43,165 bases of DNA from a virus (IMGVR_UViG_3300008255_000207:1-43165); one strand, 5' to 3'. Numbered from the stretch's first letter, positions 1 through 43,165 are shown. Notes: generated by a model not told the origin, from the sequence alone. Numbers and translations: made by a program.

Positions 1-466
1 AGGCAGTTCGCTAAATAGTTTTGAGGCTTGGTATTCGGCTGCATACATTACGCATACCAAACCCATTAAAAAAAATCAACCCCTGAGCCGCTTAAGTGCT
101 CAAAAATGCGAAGAATCGCTTAATGAAAATTTACAAGAAAGGAATACACCTATGTTTTTAAAAGGATTCAAACCTGTGAAGTGCATGGCCAAGACAGCGC
201 CCTCTACATTGCGTGAACTCAAGTATCAAGCGGATTTAGCCAATATCGAGTACCAATTGCACACCCATCAGCAGATGCCCAACCTTCTGTCTCCCACTTG
301 GCGCTTTGATACTTTGGTTGCGCTTCGTCTTCGCTTTGGAAAAACGCCGGCTTTTGAAACCATCGAGCAGCAGATTGAAAAACACTACGGGCTCAACGGC
401 CTGCGCCTATTTTTAGCTGTGCGCACTATGGCCAGAGAGATTTATCGCTTGGAGAGCTTGGCCTAA
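1..466 (+). CDS. C-terminal part of the junction-spanning SWIM protein; possible independent start at 152
   Basis: No stop in the frame from 2 to 463. ATG 152 has its own SD (GAAAGGA). Confidence 0.65.
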   Translation, partial: GSSLNSFEAWYSAAYITHTKPIKKNQPLSRLSAQKCEESLNENLQERNTPMFLKGFKPVKCMAKTAPSTLRELKYQADLANIEYQLHTHQQMPNLLSPTWRFDTLVALRLRFGKTPAFETIEQQIEKHYGLNGLRLFLAVRTMAREIYRLESLA

Positions 467-545
467 AAGCCAGGTGTTTTGTGAACCTTGAAAATTGAAT
501 AGCCCCCTGGTGAAGGGAATAGTAACCAGGGGGAGGCCGTGAGGC
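457..545 (+). ncRNA. Structured element copy E4: hairpin, boxA-like, hairpin with conserved loop, GNRA hairpin
   Basis: GTGAACCTTGAAAATTG at 481-497. Stem CCCCCTGGT/ACCAGGGGG (503-533) with loop GAAGGGAATAGTA, a variant of TGAATGGGGCATAGTAG. GCC-GTGA-GGC at 536-545. Confidence 0.65.
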
Positions 546-1031
546 TTAAATTTCTAAGAAGCCAAAGCAGCTCTCAGCAGGGATTGTGATTGGATCTGTG
601 AGCGAAAAAGGAAGGTCGATTCCTTCTGATTTCAAGTGCTCACAAATTTTCATCATGTCCCTATCGTGAGACAGTAGGTGGGTGGCCTTTTCAAGCTGTG
701 CCTGAGCGACAATCTTCAGATCATCAGCAATACAGGCTTTGTCTTTCTTGCTGCGCTGATAGTAAATCGAGGCTAATTTGCCCGCCGTTTTAGCATGGTG
801 AATCTCCAAAGCCAAAACCTCAATGTCTCTCGGAATAACATCGGGGTTCCCTTTGACGGCAAATTCAGCCACACAAACGACTGAAGTGAGCATGGGGACG
901 TTGTTTTCTTTGAGCCACTGGTAATACTTGAGGGCTGAAGGGTATTCTGGCGCAGAAGGCTTGGCCAAGTAGATTAAAAAGTTGGTGTCAAAAAAGACCG
1001 TGTACTCTGGTTTTTGAGGCGATTTACTCAC
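546..1031 (-). CDS. PIN-domain (VapC-like) ribonuclease
   Basis: FFDTNFLI, VAEF, DDLKIVAQA and LLSHD acidic PIN motifs. GTG start at 1031 overlaps the upstream stop (GTGA). Confidence 0.85.
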   Translation of the reverse strand: MSKSPQKPEYTVFFDTNFLIYLAKPSAPEYPSALKYYQWLKENNVPMLTSVVCVAEFAVKGNPDVIPRDIEVLALEIHHAKTAGKLASIYYQRSKKDKACIADDLKIVAQAQLEKATHLLSHDRDMMKICEHLKSEGIDLPFSLTDPITIPAESCFGFLEI

Positions 1032-1759
1032 ACAGCCCCCCGAAGAGAGCGAACCCATTCAACAGGGTCTACAACCTGATCAAAGGCATCTGTTTCAGGC
1101 GGGATTGTTTCAGACTTATCGAGATTGTAAGGTAAAAACTCGATAAACTTGGCGTTCCTTACTTCTCCGGTATGTAGATGCTGCTCTACGGAAGCAACAA
1201 GACCTATTTTTTTATAGAGCAAATTGGTCTTAACTGATGCAAGCACCTTGTAAGAGACCGATACAATCACTTTACCCTTGTTTCGGGTTTCTAAATGGAT
1301 ATTTGGGTCTTTGCCACCAGCGGCATAGACAATACCATAAAGGTAGACCCTGGTTTTGAACCAGAAATTGTTTTCAGGCTGAAGCAATGTGTTTTTATCC
1401 AAGAAAAAGGGCTTCTCTGGGTGTCCCTGAGAAGTGTTGATCAGCAATGGCCGATGCAAATCCGCTGTTTTTTCTTTGAGTTTCAAGAGCGCATTTTTGA
1501 AACGGGCCGGAACAATATCCAGATTCCGACTGGTGTTGACCGCATTCAGGGTATCTTGCATGTTTTTAACTGCTGCTGAATCATCGGTTTTGAGATCCAG
1601 CAAAACACAGCAATCTTTGATGTCCAGGCTGACCTTTTGCCGCTTCGCACTTTTATTGGGGTACAAAAGAGCATATGCCTGCTCGATCATCTCAAGCAGG
1701 TCTGGGATATCTAAATCCCCAGGCTTCATATCGTCGATGCGAAGTTGCAGCCAATCCAT
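1028..1759 (-). CDS. Hypothetical protein translationally coupled to the PIN gene (partner/antitoxin candidate)
   Basis: Long AT-rich ORF. Likely ATG at 1759 (the ORF track starts at 1807). GTGA overlap with the PIN gene. Confidence 0.7.
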   Translation of the reverse strand: MDWLQLRIDDMKPGDLDIPDLLEMIEQAYALLYPNKSAKRQKVSLDIKDCCVLLDLKTDDSAAVKNMQDTLNAVNTSRNLDIVPARFKNALLKLKEKTADLHRPLLINTSQGHPEKPFFLDKNTLLQPENNFWFKTRVYLYGIVYAAGGKDPNIHLETRNKGKVIVSVSYKVLASVKTNLLYKKIGLVASVEQHLHTGEVRNAKFIEFLPYNLDKSETIPPETDAFDQVVDPVEWVRSLRGAV

Positions 1760-1825
1760 TTTACGCCCCAATCCGGTTTGCTGTAACACCCATTCTAGCT
1801 GATTCACAGGGGATTATCAACATAC

Positions 1826-1915
1826 ACCCCCCAAGGGGCCACGCGGGACTACTATGCCCCATTCATTGCCTGCTGATTGTCAATGTTCACTGCCCTCCGT
1901 GTTTCACGGTGGCAG
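1826..1915 (-). ncRNA. Structured element copy E1 (chimeric)
   Basis: 1826-1866 is identical to 2674-2714 (41 bp). 1848-1874 is identical to 40837-40863 (27 bp). boxA-like GTGAACATTGACAATCAG on - (1890-1873), preceded by a GAAA-loop hairpin. Confidence 0.7.
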
Positions 1916-1921
1916 GCCACA

Positions 1922-1960
1922 TGCTACGATGGAGGCCAGTAAGCCCTGATAACTGAATAG
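1922..1960 (+). promoter_or_regulatory. Extended -10 promoter followed by a boxA-like motif
   Basis: TGcTACGAT at 1922-1930. AGCCCTGATAACTGAATAG at 1942-1960, nearly identical to 2756-2774. Confidence 0.5.
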
Positions 1961-1970
1961 AGGTGTAGGT

Positions 1971-2501
1971 GTGGAATTATACTTTTTCTTGGCTTCATGC
2001 TTTTTAGCGATCAACCTTTGGATTGCCTACAGCATTGCTCGCTTTGCTCAGAACAAAGTGCCTGATGCTCGCCAAATTATTTATGCCAAAGAGATTGCCG
2101 ATAGAAGGTTAAAAGCTTACGATACCGCGTTAAAACAAGTATCAAGCCTTTTTGCTTCTGAAACATCTACTGAAAGTGGTGTTTCCCGTAGAAACCCGAC
2201 TGAAGATGAAGCCCGCTTTATTGATTATCGGGCCGAGCTTTACAACTTGGCCGAACATATCCCCTGGTTTAGCCCTCGTTCCCTTGAGCTTCACGATCAG
2301 CATCGTAAAGCAGTGGAGAAACTATTGGCTCTTTGGGCTGAACAATCGCTTGAGAGGCCTGCCCATACGGATGAAGGAAAAGAAGTACGAAAGACGGCCC
2401 TTGCTTTGATGCAGTCTCTTGTGAGTGATTATCACCGAATGCCAGCTCTTGACGCCTTTGACGCAGAGCGTGCGCGGAATCCGAAAAATAAGAATCATTG
2501 A
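1971..2501 (+). CDS. Membrane-anchored hypothetical protein (N-terminal TM helix, RLKAY motif); paralogue of 40957-41634
   Basis: Hydrophobic N-terminus. IADRRLKAYDTALKQVSSLF aligns with IIGKRLKAYESIEKLMGLF. Confidence 0.75.
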   Translation: MELYFFLASCFLAINLWIAYSIARFAQNKVPDARQIIYAKEIADRRLKAYDTALKQVSSLFASETSTESGVSRRNPTEDEARFIDYRAELYNLAEHIPWFSPRSLELHDQHRKAVEKLLALWAEQSLERPAHTDEGKEVRKTALALMQSLVSDYHRMPALDAFDAERARNPKNKNH

Positions 2502-2619
2502 TATTCGCAAGAATCTCTTCTTGTGATTCCTTTACGAGCCGAGCAGACTCCCTGTCACTGTACTTAATCAAGGCGAAAATAGCGGTCAAAGTAGCTATAA
2601 CAGAAATTAAAGCAAGCAT
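2269..2619 (-). CDS. Small TM protein, possibly a remnant; 3' part overlaps 1971-2501 antisense
   Basis: Strong SD (AGAGGAGG) before ATG 2619. TM segment LALISVIATLTAIFALI. Confidence 0.4.
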   Translation of the reverse strand: MLALISVIATLTAIFALIKYSDRESARLVKESQEEILANINDSYFSDSAHALRQRRQELAFGDNHSQETASKQGPSFVLLFLHPYGQASQAIVQPKEPIVSPLLYDADREAQGNEG

Positions 2620-2673
2620 GTTCCCTCCTCTGCTTCCAATGTTTTGCCATAAAACAGACAATCAGAAAAACCA

Positions 2674-2751
2674 ACCCCCCAAGGGGCCACGCGGGACTAC
2701 TATGCCCCATTCATCCCGCGCTAATTTTCAAGGTTCACCGGCCCGAAGGCC
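2674..2751 (-). ncRNA. Structured element copy E2
   Basis: On -: C(UUCG)G hairpin, GTGAACCTTGAAAATTAG, stem CGCGGGA/TCCCGCG around the 17-nt loop, CCCC/GGGG hairpin, T-rich tract. Confidence 0.7.
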
Positions 2752-2782
2752 AATGAGCCCTGACAACTGAATAGGGGGGAAT

Positions 2783-3229
2783 CTAAGGTGCTTTGTGTAA
2801 GGCCTTGAGTTTACCTTCGAGGTGAAGGATTTTAAACCAGGAGCGAATAATCTCCTGAATCATTTCCAAGCCCAAGTCTACTTCCTCTCGGCCAATTTGG
2901 TCAAAGGTTTTCAGTTCAACATGAGCCGCATCATTGCCCAGATATTTGAGCTGCATCATGGCATCAACAAAACGCTGGTGGACAGAGGTTTTGTTAGGTA
3001 AATCAAGAATCTTGTGGTGCAGATCGCGACCTTCAGCTCCGACCTCTGCGCAAATCTCTTCGAGCGTTCGGCGAATCATAATGGCCGAAGCTCTGTAACA
3101 ACCAGCGCCAAAGCACTTTAATGCTTCGGTAAGCAATTGAGTAATCAAAGGTGGTAATCCCTCCGTTTCTATCTCTGGCTCAATATCAGGAAAAATCTCA
3201 AGAACCTCAAGAAAGGCGCGCCCAGTCCC
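2783..3229 (-). pseudogene. DUF4145 (HEPN-like) domain gene, apparently 5'-truncated; may still be translated from TTG 3148
   Basis: EALKCFGAGCYRASAIMIRRTLEE and LKYLGNDAAH motifs. The frame stays open and family-like upstream of the TTG (EVLEIFPDIEPEIETEGLPP) up to a TAG inside the boxA-like motif, with no ATG. Confidence 0.65.
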
Positions 3230-3265
3230 CTATTCAGTTGTCAAGGTTCACCGGCCCTCGCGGGC
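3227..3265 (-). promoter_or_regulatory. Partial element E5: GNRA hairpin plus boxA-like motif
   Basis: On -: GCCC-GCGA-GGGC then CGGTGAACCTTGACAACTGAATAG, immediately downstream of the XRE gene. Confidence 0.6.
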
Positions 3266-3299
3266 GCGGTTATCTAAATTGTCCCAAACCTCAAAACGC

Positions 3300-3599
3300 T
3301 TATTGTTTGCCTTTGAACAATATTGACGTTTCATCATCAATACTGCCCCAGGCAATGACAAAGAACACATCGAGAGCGCGTCCAAGCTTTTGCAAGACTT
3401 CAGCGGTTGGGCTGGTAATATCTTGCTCCAGCTTTGCAATCATGCTGACGCTCACCTCTGATTTCTCGGCAAGAGCCTTTTGTGAGAGGTGCTTTTCTTC
3501 TCGTGTGACCTTGAGGCCTTTAGCTGAATAGACACGTAAATCCATGTCTTCAGCATACACAGTTTTTATTGGTTCAGATGTGACAAGTGTAGATAACAT
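3300..3599 (-). CDS. XRE-family HTH repressor (XRE-1)
   Basis: LKVTREEKHLSQKALAEKSEVSVSMIAKLEQDITSPTAEVLQKLGRAL is a classic HTH_3 pattern. Start uncertain (3617, 3599 or 3545). Confidence 0.85.
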   Translation of the reverse strand: MLSTLVTSEPIKTVYAEDMDLRVYSAKGLKVTREEKHLSQKALAEKSEVSVSMIAKLEQDITSPTAEVLQKLGRALDVFFVIAWGSIDDETSILFKGKQ

Positions 3600-3600
3600 A

Positions 3601-3702
3601 TCAATATATTGACTCATTTTTATGATCTATGTCAAGCAATAATGGTAAATTAATTATCAATATATTGATTGACAAAATAAATTAGGTGTGTCAATATATT
3701 GA
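3601..3702. promoter_or_regulatory. Divergent promoters with three operator palindromes TCAATATATTGA
   Basis: Perfect palindromes at 3601-3612, 3657-3668 and 3691-3702. TTGACA on + (3669-3674) and on - (3635-3630), each with its -10 region covered by an operator. Confidence 0.8.
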
Positions 3703-3731
3703 TACAAGAACATGAATTGAAAGGAATCAAA

Positions 3732-3935
3732 ATGCCCCAAACTAGCACGGCCCCTGCGGCCAAAGTTTACCCAGACTGGATGATTGACAGTGTCCAACAG
3801 TACAAGACCGCCCTCACCGGCGGAGCAAAGGCCGACGATGGCCGGTACTGCCTGTGCAGAGAGTTCGACCGTTATGGCGAATGTGCCCACACAGATTTCA
3901 TTAAAAAAAACCAATTGGAGGAATCACATGTTTAA
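3732..3935 (+). CDS. Small SWIM zinc-finger protein
   Basis: SD GAAAGGA. YCLCREFDRYGECAH motif. Confidence 0.7.
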   Translation: MPQTSTAPAAKVYPDWMIDSVQQYKTALTGGAKADDGRYCLCREFDRYGECAHTDFIKKNQLEESHV

Positions 3936-4996: not shown

Positions 4997-5183
4997 TATC
5001 GTCATCCTGATTCTGATTCTCATCTCATTGCTTAAGCTGGCCCAGATTCAGCAGCAGCTCAATTTGCCCTGGATGGCCACACCTGGCGGTAATATGTTGC
5101 CCCCTGGCTTGGCTTTTGAGCGTATGAAATTGGTCATTCAGCTCAAGAATATGCTGGCATTGGAGGGGTACAAATGGCAGTAA
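4989..5183 (+). CDS. Small membrane protein
   Basis: SD GAGGAGG. Hydrophobic N-terminus. Overlaps both neighbours. Confidence 0.6.
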   Translation: MSDIVILILILISLLKLAQIQQQLNLPWMATPGGNMLPPGLAFERMKLVIQLKNMLALEGYKWQ

Positions 5184-5791
5184 CACGCACAGAACTACAA
5201 GGGTTAAAGCAAGAAATGCCCTATAAGGTGCGCAAAGGACCAAAGGGATCAATCCTGGCGTATATTGACGCACGCCAAGCCATGGACTTGCTCGATGAAG
5301 TCTGTGGCCCTGAAAACTGGCAATGCGACTATCGCCAAGTTAAGAACGTCGTTTATTGCGGCGTGGGGATCTTCACCGAATCCGGTTGGGTTTGGAAGTG
5401 GGATGCCGGAGATGAAAGTAATATTGATGCCGAAAAAGGCGAAGCGAGCGACGCATTTAAGCGGGCCGCTGTGCGTTGGGGTGTCGGTAGATTTCTCTAT
5501 AGCTTGGGTGATGTCAAAAAACAGCAGTACAAAGTCCCTGCTCCTGCTGCGCCAAAGCCAGCGCCCAAGCCTGCCCCTAAACCTGCGCTCACGGATACCC
5601 GTCCCGAAGCCCCTCTCACGGATGCCGGTCGCGATAATCTTACCCGTATCTGCAAAGAAACGGGTTGGACTGGCGACCACTTCAAAGAGTTGCTGCGTGA
5701 CATGGATCTGACCTGGAAAGGCCTCAGCAATGGCGATGCTGACGCTCTGATTAACTATTTTGTGCATGAGCCAAAACTGCCCCCGATTTAA
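5174..5791 (+). CDS. Rad52/Rad22-family (Sak-like) single-strand annealing protein
   Basis: LAYIDARQAMDLLDEVCGPENWQ and KGEASDAFKRAAVRWGVGRFLY signatures, Pro/Ala linker. Confidence 0.9.
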   Translation: MAVTRTELQGLKQEMPYKVRKGPKGSILAYIDARQAMDLLDEVCGPENWQCDYRQVKNVVYCGVGIFTESGWVWKWDAGDESNIDAEKGEASDAFKRAAVRWGVGRFLYSLGDVKKQQYKVPAPAAPKPAPKPAPKPALTDTRPEAPLTDAGRDNLTRICKETGWTGDHFKELLRDMDLTWKGLSNGDADALINYFVHEPKLPPI

Positions 5792-7378: not shown

Positions 7379-7492
7379 ATGGCCAATCAAAACAAACCGA
7401 TTCAACTTTCAGAGCAAGAAATCAGCGAGCGCGAGCGCCGGATTGCTGAGATCTTAGTTCAAGTGAAACGGCGGCTAGAATCGAAAAAATGA
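7379..7492 (+). CDS. 37-aa protein coupled to the integrase (directionality factor candidate)
   Basis: Not in the ORF track. MANQNKPIQLSEQEISERERRIAEILVQVKRRLESKK. ATGA overlap with the integrase start. Confidence 0.5.
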   Translation: MANQNKPIQLSEQEISERERRIAEILVQVKRRLESKK

Positions 7493-9438
7493 CTCCTCTA
7501 TTGCCACCTGGCACAAGAATAGGGCTTTTTATCCGCGTTTCGACGGATGATCAAGTCAGGAACGAGTCTCCCGAGGTTCATCTACAGCGCGGTCAAGAGT
7601 ACACCGATGGACACGGCTGGATCGTTGTTGCCGTCTATCAGCTGGACGGTGTGAGCGGTGCCTCAATGATGAATGAACCCGACACCAAACGGATGTGGCG
7701 TGACGTTGAATCAGGTGTTATTGATGCCTTGCTTTTTTCTGCTGTGGCTCGCATGGGGCGCAATATGTTTGATCTCTTTAAAATAGAGAGACATTTGCGA
7801 GCTCATGATAAATGGTTGGTAGATACGCGGCGTGGAGTGATTGATACTGATACCCAAGAGGGATTGGATTATTTTTTTCACTCTGCGCACAGAGCGCATT
7901 CTGAGAGGCTTGAACTCTCAGCAAGAGTTAAAGCTGGCCTAATTACACGGGCAAAGATGGGGCAATTCGTGGCTTCATTGCCACCTTACGGTTATAAAAA
8001 GGTCCCAGCAGCTCAGACTGGCAAAGCCAAAAAGCTGGAAATTGATCCCATTGAAGGCCCAATCAGAGTACTCATGTACGATCTCTACTTGCAGCATCGC
8101 AAATTCATGATCGTTGCTGCAGAATTAAACCGGCGCGGGTACCGAAACAGAAACGGGAAACCGTTCAGCCTTCATAATGTCAGAGCTATATTACTGGATT
8201 CGTCTGCAATGGGTGTGTATTACTCAAACCGCACAGCGCACAACAATCCAACTGGCAAAACAGAGGCAGACAGGATCCCTATCCCCGTCCCTCAACTTAT
8301 AGACGGTGAAAAATGGGAGCGCGTTAAGTCTTTGATTGAGAGCAACCTTCCAAAGGTTCGCAGAGCTATCTACCCTTACAGCGGACTTCTGAACTGCATC
8401 TGTGGCCCCAAAATGTACACAAACAGCTCAATGAATAACTCAAAGTCTCAGTACCGATATCCACCACGCTACTCCTGTCGCCAATGTGGGAATAGAATCC
8501 GTATGAATCTGCTTGATGAAGCCATTGGAGTTCTATTCACTGGCTTTCTGCTTGATGGGGTTCCTGATGGCGTTGAAGTCGAACTCAGTAAAACTGAACA
8601 ACAACTCCTGGCTCTAAAATCTGAGCTAAAAAATGTTATTGCTGGCAAAAATCGCTGGGCTGATGCTTACCAGGCCGGTGCTCTGGAGCTTGACGACTTC
8701 AAAAAGTATCACTCCCCTTTAATTGAGCGTGAGCGTGAATTAACGACCGAAATCAGTTGCCTTGAGCAGGGTCTCAGAACTGATAAAGACCAGTTGCAGG
8801 CCCAAGAACAGGCTGTCCAGGTCTTTCAGTCGGCTTCATGGTCAGACCTGACCACAGAGGAAAAACACGCATTGCTGCGTGAGTTTGTGCAATCTATCAT
8901 TTTGGGCCCAGAGAATATAACCATCAAACTCCTCTATACCCCAGCAGCCTTACAGGTCTCTGAGCCTGGATTGGCCAAACTACACAAAATTATTGCCCCC
9001 CGGCCAGATCACCTTGTCATGCCTAATGATCAGTATGCCTGGTCATGGCTTTTGCACAGAGAGCGCAAAGCAAGAGGTGAAGCCACCCGCAAAGTTTCGA
9101 CTATTCTCGGTATTCATGAGACCACGATCAATCACTGGGAAAAAATGTCTCGCCCCCCAGGCCCCACACATATTGCTAAAATAATGGAGTATCTCGGGTA
9201 TATACCTTGGGTCAGAACGCCTTATGCTCAGGACACATTGGGGGCCGCATTTAGGACTATCCGTGAGGCACTTGGCGTCACACAGCTCGAACTCAGCAAT
9301 AAGCTCAGAATATCTCAGGCAGCGATCAGCAAAGTTGAGCGGGGTGAAGTGGTCAGCGTCAAGTTATTAAACAGGATTGAAATGGCTTTAAAAGTGCCTG
9401 TAAGGCAGATATACAGAGCTTATCAGCCTGAAAATTAA
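7489..9438 (+). CDS. Large serine recombinase (integrase) with two C-terminal XRE-HTH domains
   Basis: IRVSTDDQ catalytic Ser motif, PPYGY, IVAAELNRRGYRNRNGKPFS recombinase domain, CICG...CRQC Zn ribbon, coiled coil, then two HTH_3-like segments. Confidence 0.92.
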   Translation: MTPLLPPGTRIGLFIRVSTDDQVRNESPEVHLQRGQEYTDGHGWIVVAVYQLDGVSGASMMNEPDTKRMWRDVESGVIDALLFSAVARMGRNMFDLFKIERHLRAHDKWLVDTRRGVIDTDTQEGLDYFFHSAHRAHSERLELSARVKAGLITRAKMGQFVASLPPYGYKKVPAAQTGKAKKLEIDPIEGPIRVLMYDLYLQHRKFMIVAAELNRRGYRNRNGKPFSLHNVRAILLDSSAMGVYYSNRTAHNNPTGKTEADRIPIPVPQLIDGEKWERVKSLIESNLPKVRRAIYPYSGLLNCICGPKMYTNSSMNNSKSQYRYPPRYSCRQCGNRIRMNLLDEAIGVLFTGFLLDGVPDGVEVELSKTEQQLLALKSELKNVIAGKNRWADAYQAGALELDDFKKYHSPLIERERELTTEISCLEQGLRTDKDQLQAQEQAVQVFQSASWSDLTTEEKHALLREFVQSIILGPENITIKLLYTPAALQVSEPGLAKLHKIIAPRPDHLVMPNDQYAWSWLLHRERKARGEATRKVSTILGIHETTINHWEKMSRPPGPTHIAKIMEYLGYIPWVRTPYAQDTLGAAFRTIREALGVTQLELSNKLRISQAAISKVERGEVVSVKLLNRIEMALKVPVRQIYRAYQPEN

Positions 9439-9497
9439 TATCAGTCGTAAAGGGTTAACTATGGCACCTTGGGAATAACCCTTTACGACTGATATTA
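9436..9497. repeat. Perfect 22-bp inverted repeat with 18-bp spacer; candidate attP or bidirectional terminator
   Basis: TAATATCAGTCGTAAAGGGTTA (9436-9457) and TAACCCTTTACGACTGATATTA (9476-9497), between convergent integrase and lysis genes. Confidence 0.75.
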
Positions 9498-23056: not shown

Positions 23057-23359
23057 TTATCTAAAAAGGTCTGAGTGTGATCCCATTCTCACATAAGTGA
23101 GCTCTGAATCCGGGGGTTCAGTTCCCTTCTTTTTAGGCGGATGATGCAAATAATAAATCACAAGTCGATCAGGTCCAAAGTGAAACTCACGATGTCTCTT
23201 CCAGTCACCATTTAAAGGATGATCCTTGAATTCTTTAGGAAGCGACATTCCGGTACTAAGATAAGCAGCGGCTTCTTTATACCGCTCAAAATCCCAGTTT
23301 CGGGCTTTACACCGTTCAATATCTTTTTCGAACTGATTGGTAAAAGCAATCTTTATCAT
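23057..23359 (-). CDS. yafQ: YafQ-family mRNA interferase toxin
   Basis: FTNQFEKD, KDHPLNGDWKRHREFH, DRLVIY and RMGSHSDLF. ATG at 23359. Confidence 0.9.
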   Translation of the reverse strand: MIKIAFTNQFEKDIERCKARNWDFERYKEAAAYLSTGMSLPKEFKDHPLNGDWKRHREFHFGPDRLVIYYLHHPPKKKGTEPPDSELTYVRMGSHSDLFR

Positions 23360-23360
23360 G

Positions 23361-23627
23361 TTAAATTCCGAGAGCTTTAAACGCCTCTTCATGCGAATCA
23401 AAAGATTCGAGGTTCTGTCTTTTTTCAGCATCCCGCATAGCTTCTAAAGTTATAGCATTTGGAATTCTGATGTCGAACGGAATGCCTCTCAACATTCTGA
23501 TTTGTTGATAATACATCCGAATCGCCTCTGATGCGCTAAGCCCTAATTCCTTTAATATTTTTTCTGCTTCGTGTTTTAGCTCAGGTTCAACTCGAACACG
23601 AATCGTTTCCGTTGCGGTATTAGTCAT
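23361..23627 (-). CDS. dinJ: RelB/DinJ-family antitoxin
   Basis: IRVRVEPELKHEAEKILKELGLSASEAIRMY...GIPF...PNAITLEAM. Confidence 0.92.
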   Translation of the reverse strand: MTNTATETIRVRVEPELKHEAEKILKELGLSASEAIRMYYQQIRMLRGIPFDIRIPNAITLEAMRDAEKRQNLESFDSHEEAFKALGI

Positions 23628-38485: not shown

Positions 38486-38973
38486 GCTCTGATACCCTCC
38501 TGACTCCGTTGTTTGGCAATTTCTTTGCGGTAATGAACCAACCAACGGCCATATAGACTGCCTAAGAGTGGTTCGCCAAAAGTATTAAAGAAGGCGTTTT
38601 GTCTGCTGGGATGGCATTCACAAGGCATTGCGATATTGCAAGTTCTGGAATGTTGAACAAGTTCAATCTGCTCAAAGGTGAGCTCTTTGGGCATGCCAAA
38701 TTCAACCCAAATAGGCAAAACAAACACAAAGCTTTTATCCAAGCAAAAGCGGCATTTAAAAGTTTTTTGAGCAAATTTTGCTTCTTTCTGAGATTGTCGC
38801 TGCTGTTCTTGGTGCGCTTTTTTCGCTTCGAGCCAGGCCATTTGCTCAATTTGAGAAAGCGCCTCTACGTCAGCGGCGCACATAAATGCGGCATCTTTAG
38901 GCTTGAAAGCCTTCTTGGAGACAGTCTTAGACACGACGTTTGGAATGGATTCTGAGATATGGCTAAGGCTCAT
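38482..38973 (-). CDS. Zn-binding protein next to the initiator (helicase-loader-like position)
   Basis: CRFC...CECH. SD GGAGG. No Walker motifs. Confidence 0.55.
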   Translation of the reverse strand: MSLSHISESIPNVVSKTVSKKAFKPKDAAFMCAADVEALSQIEQMAWLEAKKAHQEQQRQSQKEAKFAQKTFKCRFCLDKSFVFVLPIWVEFGMPKELTFEQIELVQHSRTCNIAMPCECHPSRQNAFFNTFGEPLLGSLYGRWLVHYRKEIAKQRSQEGIRA

Positions 38974-40001
38974 GTCGAAGCCTCCAATGGGCAAGTGTTC
39001 AAATTGGGAACTTGCCCTGTTTGAAGCCTTGCAACCAGATCTTTCCGCTCTGCTCGAAATTTTTCAAAAGGGCTGTTTTCTCTGCGTTTGCGCTCACGCT
39101 CAGCCAAAATGGTCTGTTGTTCTTCGGGTGAGAGGGCGTTAAAAGCAGCCTTTTCGGCTGCTATTTGAGCCCGAATTTCTTTCTCTGCCTCGCGTTGGGA
39201 TTCTCGCTCAGCGCGAAGCATGGCCGCTTGCTCCTCGGCTTTTTTTCGCTTTTGAGCTTCGGCCTGGTGTTCTAGCCAGGATTTTGGTGCCGGCAGATTG
39301 TCACGCAAGGCAGCCTGAAAAACAGCGACGGGATTGCGCGGATTGTGATACGGCAACCAATCGAGCTGATTGCGGCAAGCTTCGAGGCCATAATTTTGGC
39401 AAAACCTTTCGGCTTGGCTTCGGTTGAGTGGCGAGCCAAGTGATTCCAACGCCAGCATTTTGGCGATCAGTTCTTGGGCATGGGTGGGTCTGTCTTGATC
39501 TTGAGAAAAATTATTTTGCGCGTGCGTCGTCGTCGTTTCTTCTAATTTGGTTTTTTCTAAGATCGTTTCTTCTAATATCCTTTCTTCTATATCATGTGGG
39601 TTTTCCACACGCGGGTTTTCCACATGTGGATTTTCCGCATGTGGATTTTCCGCATGTGGAAAACCCACACACGGTAATTCAACATACGGGGAATCAATAT
39701 CATCAAGGTCTTCAGTGACAATCCATTCGGTTCCCGCAAATTTGGAACCGTTCTTTTTTTTGCGTATTTCAAGTAGCCCAAACATCTGAATTTCTTTCAG
39801 TATGTTGCGCAAAGAGGCTTCGCCATTTTTAGCCCTCAACAGAAGGTCTTTGCGGTTTACGGTCCAGCCGTCTGGGCGTGAGATGAGATAGGCCCATAAG
39901 CCTTTTGCTTCCCACGACAAATTGGGCGATTCTATCACTCGCAGGTCAACAGAATAGTATTTTTGCGTTTTCTTTTTGCGTAGAGTTGTTAATTCTGACA
40001 T
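38970..40001 (-). CDS. Phage replication initiator (N-terminal wHTH)
   Basis: NLSWEAKGLWAYLISRPDGWTV, internal iterons, RNPVAVFQAALRDN C-terminal domain. Confidence 0.85.
   Translation of the reverse strand: MSELTTLRKKKTQKYYSVDLRVIESPNLSWEAKGLWAYLISRPDGWTVNRKDLLLRAKNGEASLRNILKEIQMFGLLEIRKKKNGSKFAGTEWIVTEDLDDIDSPYVELPCVGFPHAENPHAENPHVENPRVENPHDIEERILEETILEKTKLEETTTTHAQNNFSQDQDRPTHAQELIAKMLALESLGSPLNRSQAERFCQNYGLEACRNQLDWLPYHNPRNPVAVFQAALRDNLPAPKSWLEHQAEAQKRKKAEEQAAMLRAERESQREAEKEIRAQIAAEKAAFNALSPEEQQTILAERERKRRENSPFEKFRAERKDLVARLQTGQVPNLNTCPLEAST
39593..39669. repeat. Iterons / putative replication origin
   Basis: Four direct 15-mers CA(T/C)G(T/C)GG(G/A)TTTTCC(A/G) plus one inverted copy, next to an AT-rich tract at ~39540-39592. 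Confidence 0.75.
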
Positions 40002-40010
40002 GCTATCCTC

Positions 40011-40193
40011 CTATGCCCAGCTTGGCCTGTTTTTTGTTTGTGAGAGGCTGCGCTCAACAGCACGTTGGAGTTGCCGTACTTGGACAGATCTGTCCTGTCG
40101 CCATGATTTGAATTCTTCCCAGAGGGTATTCTGATCTTTTTCGGCCCGTAGCTTTGCGGCCGCTTTGAGAACTTTTTTGTATACGTTTGCCAT
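40011..40193 (-). CDS. Small basic hypothetical protein
   Basis: SD TAAGGA. First gene after the structured leader. Confidence 0.6.
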   Translation of the reverse strand: MANVYKKVLKAAAKLRAEKDQNTLWEEFKSWRQDRSVQVRQLQRAVERSLSQTKNRPSWA

Positions 40194-40485
40194 AATCCTT
40201 ACCTCAGATTGTTATTTTTTGTCGAAGCCCGAAGGCCGGGCCAGGGAGCTACCCTGACCCTCAATCATGAGGTACCAGCCGTGGTAGACTGATTTTGTTA
40301 GTTTGGGGTACTACCACGTTTTGTTGGTACCTCTTTTTTTTTGCCCGCTGCTTCGGGGCTGATCACAGGGGGCATGCTATGACCAGGCCGAAAGCAGAAA
40401 ACAAACCGCCGGACCGAATCCCAGCGGGCATACTACTCATATATCACCTAAAAACGCGACAGAAACATCCTTTCTTTTTATTAAG

Positions 40486-40551
40486 TGGCTAAGACGGGAA
40501 TTGAACCCGTCACTTAGGCGAGTGAATCCTAAGCATGGCCAGATTTAGCCA
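40486..40551 (-). ncRNA. tRNA-like RNA lacking a D arm
   Basis: Acceptor-like stem TGGCTAA/TTAGCCA, stem CTTAGG/CCTAAG with 9-nt loop ATTCACTCG, T arm GACGGG-TTCAATT-CCCGTC. No CCA. Confidence 0.6.
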
Positions 40552-40580
40552 AGAAAAAGCCCAGCCATTGCTGGCCGGGC
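40552..40580 (-). terminator. Intrinsic terminator immediately 5' of the tRNA-like RNA
   Basis: GCCCGGCCA-GCAA-TGGCTGGGC followed by TTTTTCTT. Confidence 0.7.
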
Positions 40581-40672
40581 CTGAATTTAATAGTGGAACC
40601 AGACTAAATCTACTCTGCGTTTAACCGCAGCAGGGAGAGCAGGAAACGGTAAACCTGCGCTCGCTGGTGGGG

Positions 40673-40786
40673 TTATCGTGTATCAAATACAGAGTGATTT
40701 ACCGATGCAAGTGATGAATCAAGCGAATTGGTATTAAGCATTCCTTGCGAACCGCCGTAAAGCTCAATCTGTTTTTCATGAGCCAC
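40673..40786 (-). pseudogene. Fragment resembling the N-terminus of a Doc/Fic-family toxin
   Basis: VAHEKQIELYGGSQGMLNTNSLDSSLASV resembles the Doc pattern H..qI..yGG..G.rd...LeSAl. Stops before the Fic catalytic motif. Confidence 0.5.
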
Positions 40787-40813
40787 ACATGTGCAAGAGC
40801 AAAAACAAATTTA

Positions 40814-40896
40814 CCCGCCAAAGCGGGGCGCAGGCAACTACTATGCCCCATTCATTGCCTGCTAATTTTCAAGGTTCACTCGCTGCAAAATGCAGC
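40814..40896 (-). ncRNA. Structured element copy E3
   Basis: On -: GCTGCA/TGCAGC hairpin, GTGAACCTTGAAAATTAG, stem GCAGGCAA/TTGCCTGC around the same 17-nt loop, CCCGC/GCGGG hairpin. Confidence 0.7.
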
Positions 40897-40956
40897 ATGG
40901 AAGGCTCAAAAAGCCCTCTATGCTATACTCTGGCTTTAATTTGATCACAGTTTTTT

Positions 40957-42123: not shown

Positions 42124-42270
42124 TCGTCCCATTTTTTCTGAAAATCGTCGAAGACTTTGTCCATTTTGCGGGAATGGCAATAAATGTCAATACACAAAAT
42201 GACGGACAGGATTATCGTCAAAACGGACGGAATAATTGTAATGATCTCAAGAGTCAGATTTTTCGACACA

Positions 42271-42297
42271 AAAAATAGCCTCAATATTTATTGAGGC
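42271..42297 (-). terminator. Terminator after XRE-2
   Basis: GCCTCAATA/TATTGAGGC followed by TATTTTT. Two further hairpins at 42317-42369. Confidence 0.6.
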
Positions 42298-42370
42298 CAC
42301 ATGTTACGATAGGAACACCAGGTTGGTCCCTGGTGATTGTTATCTGCCCTCAGCTTTCGAGCTGGGGGCT

Positions 42371-42661
42371 TTATTCTTCCCAATCTGCATAAATATACAA
42401 GCCAAAAAACCGCCCAACTTTACCGAGTGTTTCTATGCCTGGGTTTTTTACGATCCCAGACTCCAGACGCTTGATTGTATTGATATCAATACCAGAAGCT
42501 TTTGAGAATGCATCTTGGGTTCTATACCCATTCTCAGCTCTCAACTTCTTTATCAGGTCTGGTGAGTACGGTTCAAATCTTGGCATTGTAGTACGAAACA
42601 CTCCAAAGCGCGTAATAGCGCGCACCTTCTTGTTATCCATTCTACAACTTGTTTCTTGCAC
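42371..42661 (-). CDS. XRE-family HTH repressor (XRE-2)
   Basis: IKKLRAENGYRTQDAFSKASGIDINTIKRLESGIVKNPGIETLGKV. Start 42661, 42640 or 42586. Confidence 0.85.
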   Translation of the reverse strand: MQETSCRMDNKKVRAITRFGVFRTTMPRFEPYSPDLIKKLRAENGYRTQDAFSKASGIDINTIKRLESGIVKNPGIETLGKVGRFFGLYIYADWEE

Positions 42662-42685
42662 TGTCTTGTGACCTCGTTAACATCG

Positions 42686-42761
42686 ATTTTATTCTATTGA
42701 ACTTAAATTGTCAATAAAATCTTTATTGGCTATTGACTAGTTTACTGTAATAAACTAGAAT
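42686..42761. promoter_or_regulatory. Back-to-back sigma70-type promoters with an operator palindrome
   Basis: - strand TTGACA(42714-42709)-17-TAAAAT. + strand TTGACT(42733-42738)-17-TAGAAT. Palindrome CTAGTTTA-N6-TAAACTAG at 42737-42758. Confidence 0.8.
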
Positions 42762-42815
42762 AATTTTCAGGATAACAAAAACACCCGGCCTCACCAGCCA
42801 GAAAGAAGGACCAAC

Positions 42816-43165
42816 ATGAAAACCTACGAACAGCGTGTTGAAGACGACCTTGCAGAGATTGAATCTGCACTCAAAACGCTCAAAACAAAGAAACAGGAGC
42901 AGACGCTTATCAAAGTGGCGCAAGTCACCCCTGAGCGCATTGCTAAATACCACACCCAAATAAGTCACTGCGATTGCCAAGATTACCAGCGCGGAGGCTC
43001 TTACAGCTCTCCCGATCACCGCGATTGCAAACACACAATCAAGCTTCAAGGCGAAGTGCATTTTTACCAAACCCGTCAGCTTAAAATGGGTATTTGGATC
43101 TGCAATTGCATCGAATGGGATGAAAGTGGCGAAGGGAATCAAGGTTCCTGTGTTCACACCAAAGC
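42816..43165 (+). CDS. N-terminal part of a tandem SWIM zinc-finger protein; continues across the circular junction to 466 (271 aa in total)
   Basis: Not in the ORF track. SD GAAGGA precedes ATG 42816. Translation MKTYEQRVEDD...HCDCQDYQRGGSYSSPDHRDCKH...ICNCIEWDESGEGNQGSCVHTK contains two CxC..CxH SWIM motifs. The frame is open to the window end and in frame with 2..466. Confidence 0.75.
   Translation, partial: MKTYEQRVEDDLAEIESALKTLKTKKQEQTLIKVAQVTPERIAKYHTQISHCDCQDYQRGGSYSSPDHRDCKHTIKLQGEVHFYQTRQLKMGIWICNCIEWDESGEGNQGSCVHTK

Follow-up and report, generated by a model that had tools for sequence, protein, structure and literature searches.

A covarying boxA and double-hairpin element in phages of Sericytochromatia, a candidate antitermination signal

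To our knowledge, what is understood of how temperate phages achieve early antitermination comes almost entirely from E. coli phages, namely from the N/nut and put systems. The lambdoid boxB is a short hairpin with a five-base GNRA-like loop, and N and boxB change together, whereas put acts alone through the zinc-binding domain of β', with neither Nus factors nor a phage protein. The antitermination site of rRNA operons has the layout boxB-boxA-boxC and uses NusA, NusB, NusE, NusG, SuhB and S4. Two further points of reference are the order of the lambda nut site, in which boxA comes before the hairpin (cited section of PMC8632103), and the loop E or S-turn, which the cited passage of PMC4695836 defines by AGUA opposing GAA beside a helix.

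Here we describe an element found in a window of 43,165 nucleotides (the whole stretch of DNA analysed, IMGVR_UViG_3300008255_000207), which is a temperate phage of Sericytochromatia. The element is compact, at about 90 nt, and reads 5' to 3' as hairpin A, boxA, hairpin B and hairpin C. It is a conserved, covarying four-part sequence that is uncatalogued, and 13 full copies are present across seven contigs (phage or prophage), with up to four copies per phage. Its range so far is one phage family within one class, Sericytochromatia, and this narrow range limits its general weight. Because the element comes with natural compensatory variants, a naturally broken copy (E1) and its own downstream terminators, it lets one ask how a phage gets past terminators when it lacks N, and whether the Nus complex of rRNA operons can be made more capable by RNA structure; it would also be a regulatory RNA that doubles as an exchange point for toxin-antitoxin and defence-like cargo.

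Structure, covariation and boxA identity of the element

Four full copies lie in the window. E4 (456-547, plus strand) consists of hairpin A at 456-475, boxA at 481-502, hairpin B at 503-533 and hairpin C at 534-547, and the other three are on the minus strand: E2 (2673-2754; hairpin A 2737-2754, boxA 2723-2738, hairpin B 2689-2721, hairpin C 2673-2688), E3 (40814-40898; hairpin A ~40882-40898, boxA 40864-40879, hairpin B 40830-40862, hairpin C 40814-40827) and the chimeric E1 (1826-1916). The first-pass annotation, which had reported these four copies and three partial ones, gave their coordinates and strands correctly, as it did the loop sequences of E1-E4, the stops of the PIN gene (546) and the DUF4145 gene (2783) and the GTG at 1971. 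Taken as a whole it described something real and mostly as it is, and it erred on the partial copies and on hairpin B of E1, said to pair, in which just four of eight pairs form. The mismatch in E1, the loop-E signature and the leader-trailer-like duplex described below had been overlooked. The four copies of boxA plus loop in the window, exact or with one mismatch, exceed chance. The boxA core by itself is weak evidence: it has nine matches in the window at three mismatches or fewer, compared with a shuffle mean of 2.7, and one of 100 shuffles reaches nine.

Across 10 distinct stems of hairpin B, 77 of 80 cells pair, and 20,000 arm-swap permutations never gave as many. The paired share of hairpin B is 96.9%, seven of its eight pairs have changed on both sides and none of 500 shuffles was as good; in slid registers, pairing fell to just 28-54%. 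While the stems vary, GAA, GG and UAGUA stay the same in each of the 13 full copies, and GAA with AGUA (at 512 and 521 in E4) forms, at the level of sequence, a loop-E signature in every one of them. What had been called the loop was correct in sequence and is better read as an internal GAA/AGUA motif with a small purine-rich cap loop, whose closing pair varies (U-G, C-G or U-A). The stem arms are separated by 13-15 nt, with GAA/AGUA within them, and not by the five-base GNRA-like loop of a boxB. We note that the copies are related and may have been homogenised by recombination, which would inflate the invariance of the loop. Hairpins B and C together span about 45-50 nt and fold better on the boxA strand in 13/13 copies, by a margin of only 0.2-0.3 kcal/mol in two. 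The stem of hairpin C is only ~5 bp; with a T-rich tail behind it, hairpin C resembles a terminator by score in E2, in E3 and in the copy of G041, and E4, the two E4-like copies and those of L170, G042 and G044 lack such a tail. Directly 5' of boxA, a hairpin is predicted at 15/15 phage sites (one of them weak), a count made without a shuffle control.

No Rfam family matched the elements in the window (E up to 1) or in nine related loci (E up to 5). The absence of an Rfam match and the covariation of hairpin B together bear out the earlier suggestion of an unrecognised covarying RNA motif. BLAST against phages and plasmids returned nothing relevant. A strict pattern had no match in 185,579 species genomes, a weak blank, given that the G001 copies differ slightly from the pattern or were not returned. 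The pattern scans gave mostly chance matches (1/1; 48 of 53 loci, the others being four in the window itself and one new; 9/10; 1/2), and one scan gave none. A looser pattern of boxA plus GAA..AGTA returned 46 viral loci, none with more than 5/7 stem pairs and none matching the model; boxA is thus frequent among phages, whereas the B and C hairpins turned up nowhere else in this search. The model likewise found no copy in 151 sampled genomes of the phylum outside Sericytochromatia, with only 38 candidates scored per genome. A terminase alignment search returned 80 distant viral loci. The main texts of openly licensed papers and of bioRxiv held no description of the element; a supplementary motif catalogue might list one.

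The boxA had been taken for the rrn type, and its placement in host rRNA leaders and two CRISPR leaders supports this. The phage consensus matches 14-18 of 19 positions on the sense strand, 70-178 nt before 16S rRNA, at 11/12 loci and in 9/10 host-class genomes, with at most 1/200 shuffles reaching the score; the reverse strands of the 16S leaders score 9-13/19. The same boxA precedes two CRISPR arrays, and GAACCTTGAAAA is annotated as the boxA of cyanobacterial ITS regions in the cited part of PMC8461337. At a further site in the window (3227-3270, minus strand), the 20 nt that start with GAACC agree without a mismatch with a 16S leader site of the host class (L141). Among 47 class genomes, 29 have a Rho match above the cut-off, all four that bear prophage copies being among them, and each of these four has a NusB-family (PF01029) match. 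In 7/9 host loci, boxA also supplies the leader side of the 16S leader-trailer helix, so the boxA match alone does not prove Nus loading. The model of hairpins B and C found nothing in the host rRNA loci of the 47 class genomes.

Position of the copies and a putative antitermination role

The minus strand that bears E3 is headed by HTH1, a Cro/CI-type repressor-like gene (42371-42661). Downstream of E3, on the same strand, are two intrinsic-terminator-like hairpins (40406-40582; at 40557-40582 and 40406-40427), with a tRNA-like fold between them at ~40481-40551, followed by a replication initiation gene (38970-40001, minus; phrog_4707). SWIM1 (42816-43163, plus), the first gene of the divergent operon, runs past the contig end. 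E4 faces the cargo region from the side of the SWIM1 operon, has homologues in L025 and G001, and is preceded by a 104-aa ORF (152-466, plus; homologues in G001 and G042), the last gene ahead of it. The cargo begins with a PIN-domain gene (546-1058, minus; PF01850, E 1.9e-5), whose stop overlaps hairpin C of E4 and which is likely the toxin of a two-gene pair; its likely partner is a 259-aa ORF (1028-1807, minus) that overlaps its start and has no family match. A 176-aa ORF (1971-2501, plus), also without a family match, lies between E1 and E2 and antisense to them. E2 and E1 are on the strand headed by HTH2 (3300-3617, minus), a second Cro/CI-type repressor-like gene, from which SWIM2, a small SWIM-like zinc-finger gene (3732-3935, plus), diverges.

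In 6/6 contigs scanned, a copy follows a repressor-like HTH gene and lies upstream of terminators and replication genes, which is the position of nutR, and in 6/6 loci scanned at least two terminator-like hairpins follow on the strand of the element. In three phages a second copy, in the opposite direction, is on the divergent transcript. From this position and the downstream terminators we infer an antitermination function: the element may act in the nascent RNA as a nut- or put-like signal, a reading that we prefer to the alternatives below and for and against which, judged from sequence, we see the balance as about even. The boxA before all 13 full copies would imply the involvement of Nus, and it argues against Nus independence. 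On this view, host NusB-S10 would be recruited by hairpin A together with boxA, and Rho would be kept from acting on untranslated and on antisense cargo, as happens in rRNA operons. Hairpins B and C would bind some part of the host elongation complex, much as put does, and help it resist intrinsic terminators as well, without N. In phages with a duplicated HTH/SWIM module, an inward-facing pair of elements would let both convergent transcripts cross the cargo block. Against antitermination stand the terminator-like hairpin C of E2, E3 and the copy in G041 and the persistence of E1 with its broken hairpin B. No promoter-like site was found in 40150-40900 of the window; four of five relatives scanned have such sites after the element and ahead of the replication gene, which may make read-through unnecessary.

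Two of the supposed partial copies proved to be complements, and the third is not a truncated element: at 3227-3270 a hairpin and boxA of the host type stand alone, with neither hairpin B nor hairpin C, and 2748-2777 and 1934-1963 (both minus) are its near-complements. The former, just beyond the stop of the DUF4145 gene (2783-3148, minus; weak PD-T7-4 match), pairs as an anti-boxA trailer with the leader strand at 3227-3256 over 30 positions (26 Watson-Crick, three G-U and one A-C). The resulting 30-bp duplex, which resembles the host 16S leader-trailer helix, brackets the gene, which is 5'-truncated (~330 bp are missing from its 5' part compared with the G001 copy). The G001 copy, located elsewhere in that prophage, has such a duplex as well (-45.1 kcal/mol; -52.3 kcal/mol in the window), with one C-G to U-A double change. 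The 1934-1963 trailer, which reads as a degenerate boxA on the plus strand, is 90% identical to the DUF4145 trailer of G001 and forms a partial duplex with the boxA of E2.

Cargo exchange and alternative readings

It had been proposed that cargo cassettes are exchanged at the elements, and the comparison of relatives agrees: their cargo differs, shared DNA is concentrated at the elements, two copies are chimeric and one recombinant junction is at boxA. Although the elements make up 2-19% of each accessory region, 43 of the 71 DNA segments shared between such regions overlap an element on both sides. In E1, the 5' arm is of the E3 type and the 3' arm and hairpin C are of the E2 type, with the switch in the loop; a second chimera (G041:C55), after a DUF891 gene pair and outside recognisable phage context, also switches at the loop, and in run X2 a recombinant junction is at the 5' edge of boxA. 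The E1 sequence also occurs in a separately assembled contig of run X1 (possibly from the same sample) that spans the switch, which makes an assembly artefact unlikely. Campbell-type integration of a circle was rejected as the origin of E1, as it predicts two reciprocal chimeras and E2 is intact. Little else in this variable region is conserved, which makes the elements likely crossover points. The likely agent of exchange at short homologies is the Erf/Rad52-like single-strand annealing protein (5174-5791, plus; PF04098, phrog_1097), which would use the elements for crossover, with cassette exchange as a by-product. Swapping looks secondary, because the whole early region of G041, from replication gene to integrase, carries a single copy.

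The absence of an evident N-like gene, noted earlier, was upheld by Pfam and PHROG searches with 53 window proteins, which gave no N match, and 13 small early window proteins hold at most four Arg per 15 residues, in a contig that may lack a few bases at its ends. A SWIM-like gene is first after the divergent promoter in the window, G001, L170, G041, G042 and G044, so that each of the six contigs extending into this region has one where lambda has N, and a phage protein may be a partner. A true nut analogue, in which boxA loads host Nus and hairpin B (with C) binds a phage antiterminator unlike N, for which the SWIM zinc-finger protein is the most plausible choice, would share the order of boxA and hairpin with lambda nut (cited section of PMC8632103) and gain a timing switch that a host-only RNA lacks. 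We consider it somewhat unlikely in view of the missing arginine-rich motif, of searches with SWIM for homologues and in the Atlas that gave no functional link, and of SWIM proteins that fall to 24-34% identity between phages or modules where the loop stays identical, unlike lambdoid N and boxB. If instead hairpin C were an attenuator or plain terminator tuned by hairpin B, with boxA serving only upstream genes, the three T-tailed copies would be explained; the tailless copies, the short stem of hairpin C and the action of boxA downstream of itself make this highly improbable.

The duplex around DUF4145 in the window and G001 might point to RNA processing or stability, in which boxA would supply one side of a processing duplex, while hairpins B and C would protect or mark the ends of cargo mRNAs cut from a long early transcript. 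The pairing of boxA with the 16S trailer at 7/9 host loci and the tRNA-like fold downstream of E3 are consistent with this, and leader-trailer helices are RNase III substrates that the enzyme cuts (cited part of PMC10250234). Such a role is unlikely for the full element and suits the partial copies better: a downstream partner clearly past the shuffle range is missing for all 13 full elements and present only for the two sites that lack hairpin B, and the bias of G-U to the sense strand of the gene (4/6 independent mismatches) is not significant. The two chimeras, the X2 junction and the shared segments would also be expected if cassettes were exchanged by a site-specific system working on DNA (attC- or REP-like), whose recombinase would recognise the single-stranded hairpin and cross over in the fixed loop. 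We regard it as very improbable, since the 53 window proteins include no integron-type tyrosine integrase, HUH enzyme or transposase, the sole integrase being a large serine recombinase; since the early region of G041 has one copy; and since junctions occur at several points (loop, boxA edge, trailer), as homologous exchange predicts. It would also leave the match of boxA to rRNA leaders and the fixed orientation unexplained.

Returning to antitermination, we tentatively put forward, as a possibility that we rate below antitermination as such, a third class of early antitermination in phages, a hybrid of nut and put that would combine a boxA of the host rRNA type with a loop-E double hairpin and make polymerase ignore Rho-dependent and intrinsic terminators without a phage protein; the same phages would enclose a defence-like cargo gene in an imitation of the 16S leader-trailer helix and trade cargo at the elements.

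Comparison with known systems

Like the short shared segments at the boundaries used by Rad52-like phage recombinases, which accept short, diverged homology (cited part of PMC3945230), the elements are short stretches in otherwise unrelated accessory DNA of a phage with an Erf-like gene; here, however, the shared segment is a structured regulatory RNA element, and its loop of 15-17 nt is by itself below the 23-27 bp minimum quoted for Red-beta, so that flanking identity would be needed. With loop E or the S-turn (the bulged-G motif, as in T-box leaders), the element shares AGUA opposite GAA next to a stem, the definition in the cited PMC4695836 passage, in 13/13 copies, but its motif is capped by just 6-8 nt and would sit near the hairpin tip, and it has no T-box match in Rfam.

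The lambdoid nut sites (lambda, P22, phi21) resemble the element in having boxA and then a hairpin with a conserved purine-rich loop, after a Cro-like gene and before terminators and replication genes, and in the second, opposite copy on the divergent transcript seen here in three phages. The hairpin of the element is longer, bears the loop-E signature and is followed by a second one; the element further differs in the extra hairpin 5' of boxA, in its up to four copies and in the lack of an arginine-rich N candidate. The put sites of HK022 (putL and putR) likewise have two adjacent hairpins with non-canonical features in an early phage transcript and no N gene (cited parts of PMC8632103 and PMC9378689), with a double hairpin of ~45-50 nt here versus about 65 nt in put; unlike put, all 13 full copies are preceded by boxA. 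The antitermination site of rRNA operons shares with the element the hairpin right before boxA and the boxA itself, which matches host 16S and CRISPR leaders, and the phage boxA/anti-boxA duplex encloses a gene as the rRNA leader-trailer helix does. To this rRNA-type site the phage element adds two conserved hairpins with a GAA/AGUA motif after boxA, and it sits in phage mRNA, upstream of intrinsic terminators.

Structure and distribution of the element

The element, in which hairpin A is followed by boxA, hairpin B, and hairpin C, occurs in the window as four full copies (E4, 456..547, on the plus strand; E1, 1826..1916, E2, 2673..2754, and E3, 40814..40898, on the minus strand) and three partial ones (a hairpin and boxA without hairpins B and C at 3227-3270 and anti-boxA "trailers" at 2748-2777 and 1934-1963), confirming the copies and positions reported in the first-pass annotation. 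In E2, E3, and E4, boxA remains single-stranded among three folded hairpins (z-scores of -1.8 to -2.6). E1 lacks this fold (z -0.7); the 5′ arm of its hairpin B is that of E3, and its 3′ arm and hairpin C are those of E2. These arms mark E1 as a chimera whose switch point lies within the loop, and the sequence across that point is also present in a separately assembled contig of sequencing run X1, possibly from the same sample. Pattern and genome searches revealed nine further full copies (three in the genome G001; two in the 1.9-kb fragment L025, which includes an HTH gene; and one each in the contig L170 and the genomes G041, G042, and G044), giving 13 in 7 contigs. Replication, recombination, or SWIM genes are common to the window and L170, G001, G041, G042, and G044.

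The claim that the stems of hairpin B differ but still pair holds for 10 distinct stems (77 of 80 cells; E1 and two duplicate stems left out) and fails for E1, in which 4 of 8 pairs form. None of 20,000 arm swaps reached the 10-stem count, and in a 12-row alignment of all full copies except E1, 96.9% of hairpin B cells are paired, 7 of 8 pairs are changed on both sides, the score is reached by 0 of 500 shuffles, and slid registers give 28-54%, bearing out the proposed covariation with statistics that ignore the relatedness of the copies. GAA, GG, and UAGUA never vary; the closing pair does (U-G, C-G, or U-A). The loop E/S-turn motif is defined by opposing GAA and AGUA (PMC4695836, excerpt), and we infer this fold for hairpin B from its sequence. 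A covariance-model search of Rfam matched no described motif to any copy, in keeping with the first reading of the element as an unfamiliar motif, and no description was found in openly licensed papers and bioRxiv. The covariance model recovered two held-out, damaged copies (in G041 and in G040, the latter decayed and within a related prophage region) and found no copy outside Sericytochromatia in 151 sampled phylum genomes and no match in 46 other viral boxA loci. Overall, we conclude that this is a real, uncatalogued structured element, so far confined to one phage family of Sericytochromatia.

Some copies depart from the common form. One in G001 (L055 4575-4662) has an extra hairpin between boxA and hairpin B, with a spacer of 28 nt versus 2-7. 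Hairpin A of E4 (456-475) matches the corresponding G001 hairpin (L055 866-885) at 15 of 20 positions as the reverse complement and at 10 of 20 in the same orientation (hand count), as if inverted. At G041:C55 (L202 9002-9874), the loop and 3′ half of the element form the end of a DUF891 gene pair, boxA is absent, and nothing nearby resembles the phage genes of the window; this locus may be a cassette that remained in the host chromosome.

The phage and its early region

The 43,165-base window spans an entire virus record and codes for a tailed, temperate phage, with genes for terminase, tape measure, large serine integrase, Erf-like recombinase, and replication initiator. The terminase is 93% identical to that of a Sericytochromatia genome bin (G001, contig L055), another homologue carries the name Sericytochromatia, and alignment with G001 suggests that both contig ends are nearly adjacent. 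The early region comprises two divergent modules, each with a minus-strand Cro/CI-type HTH gene (HTH1, 42371..42661; HTH2, 3300..3617) facing a small plus-strand gene of SWIM-like type (SWIM1, 42816..43163; SWIM2, 3732..3935). The window and G001 have this switch twice, and G041, G042, and G044 have it once (window 3300-3935 and 42371-43165; L205 10180-13610). SWIM1 carries an N-terminal "KTYEQR..EDLAEIE" segment in the window, and SWIM2 carries it in G001. The palindrome TCAATATATTGA, present three times between HTH2 and SWIM2 (3601-3701), is likely an operator. Elsewhere, the serine integrase (7489-9438) has C-terminal HTH_3 domains and a perfect 22-bp inverted repeat after the gene (9436-9497), a RelB/YafQ toxin-antitoxin pair lies within the tail gene block without an element copy (23057-23627), and the replication gene contains a 36-bp inverted repeat and iteron-like repeats (39593-39669), together a likely origin.

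In the window, G001, L170, G041, G042, and G044, one copy of the element shares its strand with an HTH gene, which it follows, and precedes a conserved non-coding block leading to the replication genes; farther along that strand, all six loci have two or more terminator-like hairpins. By analogy, a place after the HTH gene and before terminators and replication genes is the position of nutR. No promoter-like site was found between E3 and the next gene in the window, and such sites occur within the cargo (the accessory genes) in four of five relatives. In the window, G001, and L025, a cargo block separates the HTH-side copy from an E4-type copy that faces it from the opposite strand, and the early region of G041, from replication gene to integrase, holds a single copy.

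The non-coding block also contains a tRNA-like element before the replication genes (window 40481-40551, minus strand; L167 3573-3645; L201 4518-4591; L203 721-792; L204 6525-6597; L210 2108-2203). The versions in the relatives are scored as tRNAs whose anticodon loops vary or are malformed; that of the window has acceptor-like and T-arm-like stems (z -3.7) and no ARAGORN call. We take them to be reminiscent of RNase P-processed phage immunity RNAs. A second short module, which includes GGCCACATG and a terminator-like hairpin, is repeated downstream of the HTH gene and of an anti-boxA trailer (window 1914-1935 and 42265-42309; L055 2665-2693 and 4376-4420).

Cargo exchange at the elements

The gene that comes after the element or faces it is almost always a different one, the cargo including PIN, Panacea/SocA, DUF2335, and Fic/Doc pairs, DUF4145, and unknown proteins. 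Between E4 and its G001 counterpart, homology starts at the first base of boxA and stops at hairpin C. A contig of sequencing run X2 is identical to window 481-631, with different upstream sequence resembling that of L025, and the DUF4145 cassette follows HTH2 in the window and HTH1 in G001. Ten accessory regions, of each of which elements make up 2-19%, share 71 segments, and 43 of these overlap an element on both sides; most of the others are apparently short non-coding hairpins. Sequence comparison thus supports well the idea, raised in the first-pass annotation, that cargo is swapped at the elements. The phage encodes a Rad52-like (Erf-like) recombinase, and such enzymes work on short, diverged homology (PMC3945230, excerpt); a recombinase dedicated to this exchange is not well supported.

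Host boxA, candidate partner proteins, and known antitermination sites

The phage boxA consensus matches at 14-18 of 19 positions, on the sense strand and 70-178 nt before 16S rRNA, in 11 of 12 host loci (9 of 10 genomes; the exception had just 205 nt of leader, and two partial 16S matches are outside the count), with scores reached by at most 1 of 200 shuffles. One further host-class 16S leader shares a 20-nt identity with window 3230-3249. The motif is also found ahead of CRISPR arrays in G001 and in another genome, G033, a known context for boxA (PMC13753749, excerpt), and GAACCTTGAAAA is the annotated boxA of cyanobacterial ITS (PMC8461337, excerpt). The assignment of the phage motif as an rrn-type boxA is supported. 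TTGAMAAYTGAATA is common in unrelated viral contigs (L229-L274), often apparently intergenic, without hairpins B and C.

In seven of nine host loci, boxA pairs with sequence after 16S rRNA as a leader-trailer helix (background in PMC10250234, excerpt). Window 3227-3256 and 2748-2777 pair likewise around DUF4145 (26 Watson-Crick, 3 G-U, and 1 A-C), with -52.3 kcal/mol on the gene's strand versus -47.3 on the opposite strand; the duplex recurs in G001 (-45.1 versus -39.8 kcal/mol), with one C-G to U-A double change. Because the G-U bias (4 of 6 independent mismatches) is not significant, the duplex may be a DNA inverted repeat; that it is an RNase III site, or releases a Nus complex after the gene, is speculation. 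For the full elements, none of the 13 had a leader-trailer-like partner clearly beyond the shuffle range. The window copy of DUF4145 lacks ~330 bp at its 5′ end, and the family weakly matches the PD-T7-4 defence model.

As first noted, no N-like gene is evident: none of the 53 window proteins scanned matches an N family, and the 13 proteins checked lack an arginine-rich stretch, with 4 Arg at most in 15 residues. In six contigs the place of N is taken by a SWIM-like gene, making its product the main rival as partner of the element. We lean toward a host factor, as for put (the HK022 double-hairpin antitermination RNA), which acts with a host partner (PMC9378689 and PMC8632103, excerpts), because, besides the lack of an N match or arginine-rich stretch, the SWIM-like proteins are just 24-34% identical across most of the six contigs with the loop unchanged, and searches returned no function for them. 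Rho and a NusB-family gene are present in all four prophage hosts.

By analogy, the element most likely functions in the manner of nut or put. Membership tests place it outside nut/N, and it cannot be assigned to put. A predicted hairpin lies directly 5′ of boxA in 15 of 15 phage sites (one weak), and this hairpin-then-boxA order is that of the rRNA antitermination site, boxB then boxA (PMC8632103, excerpt).
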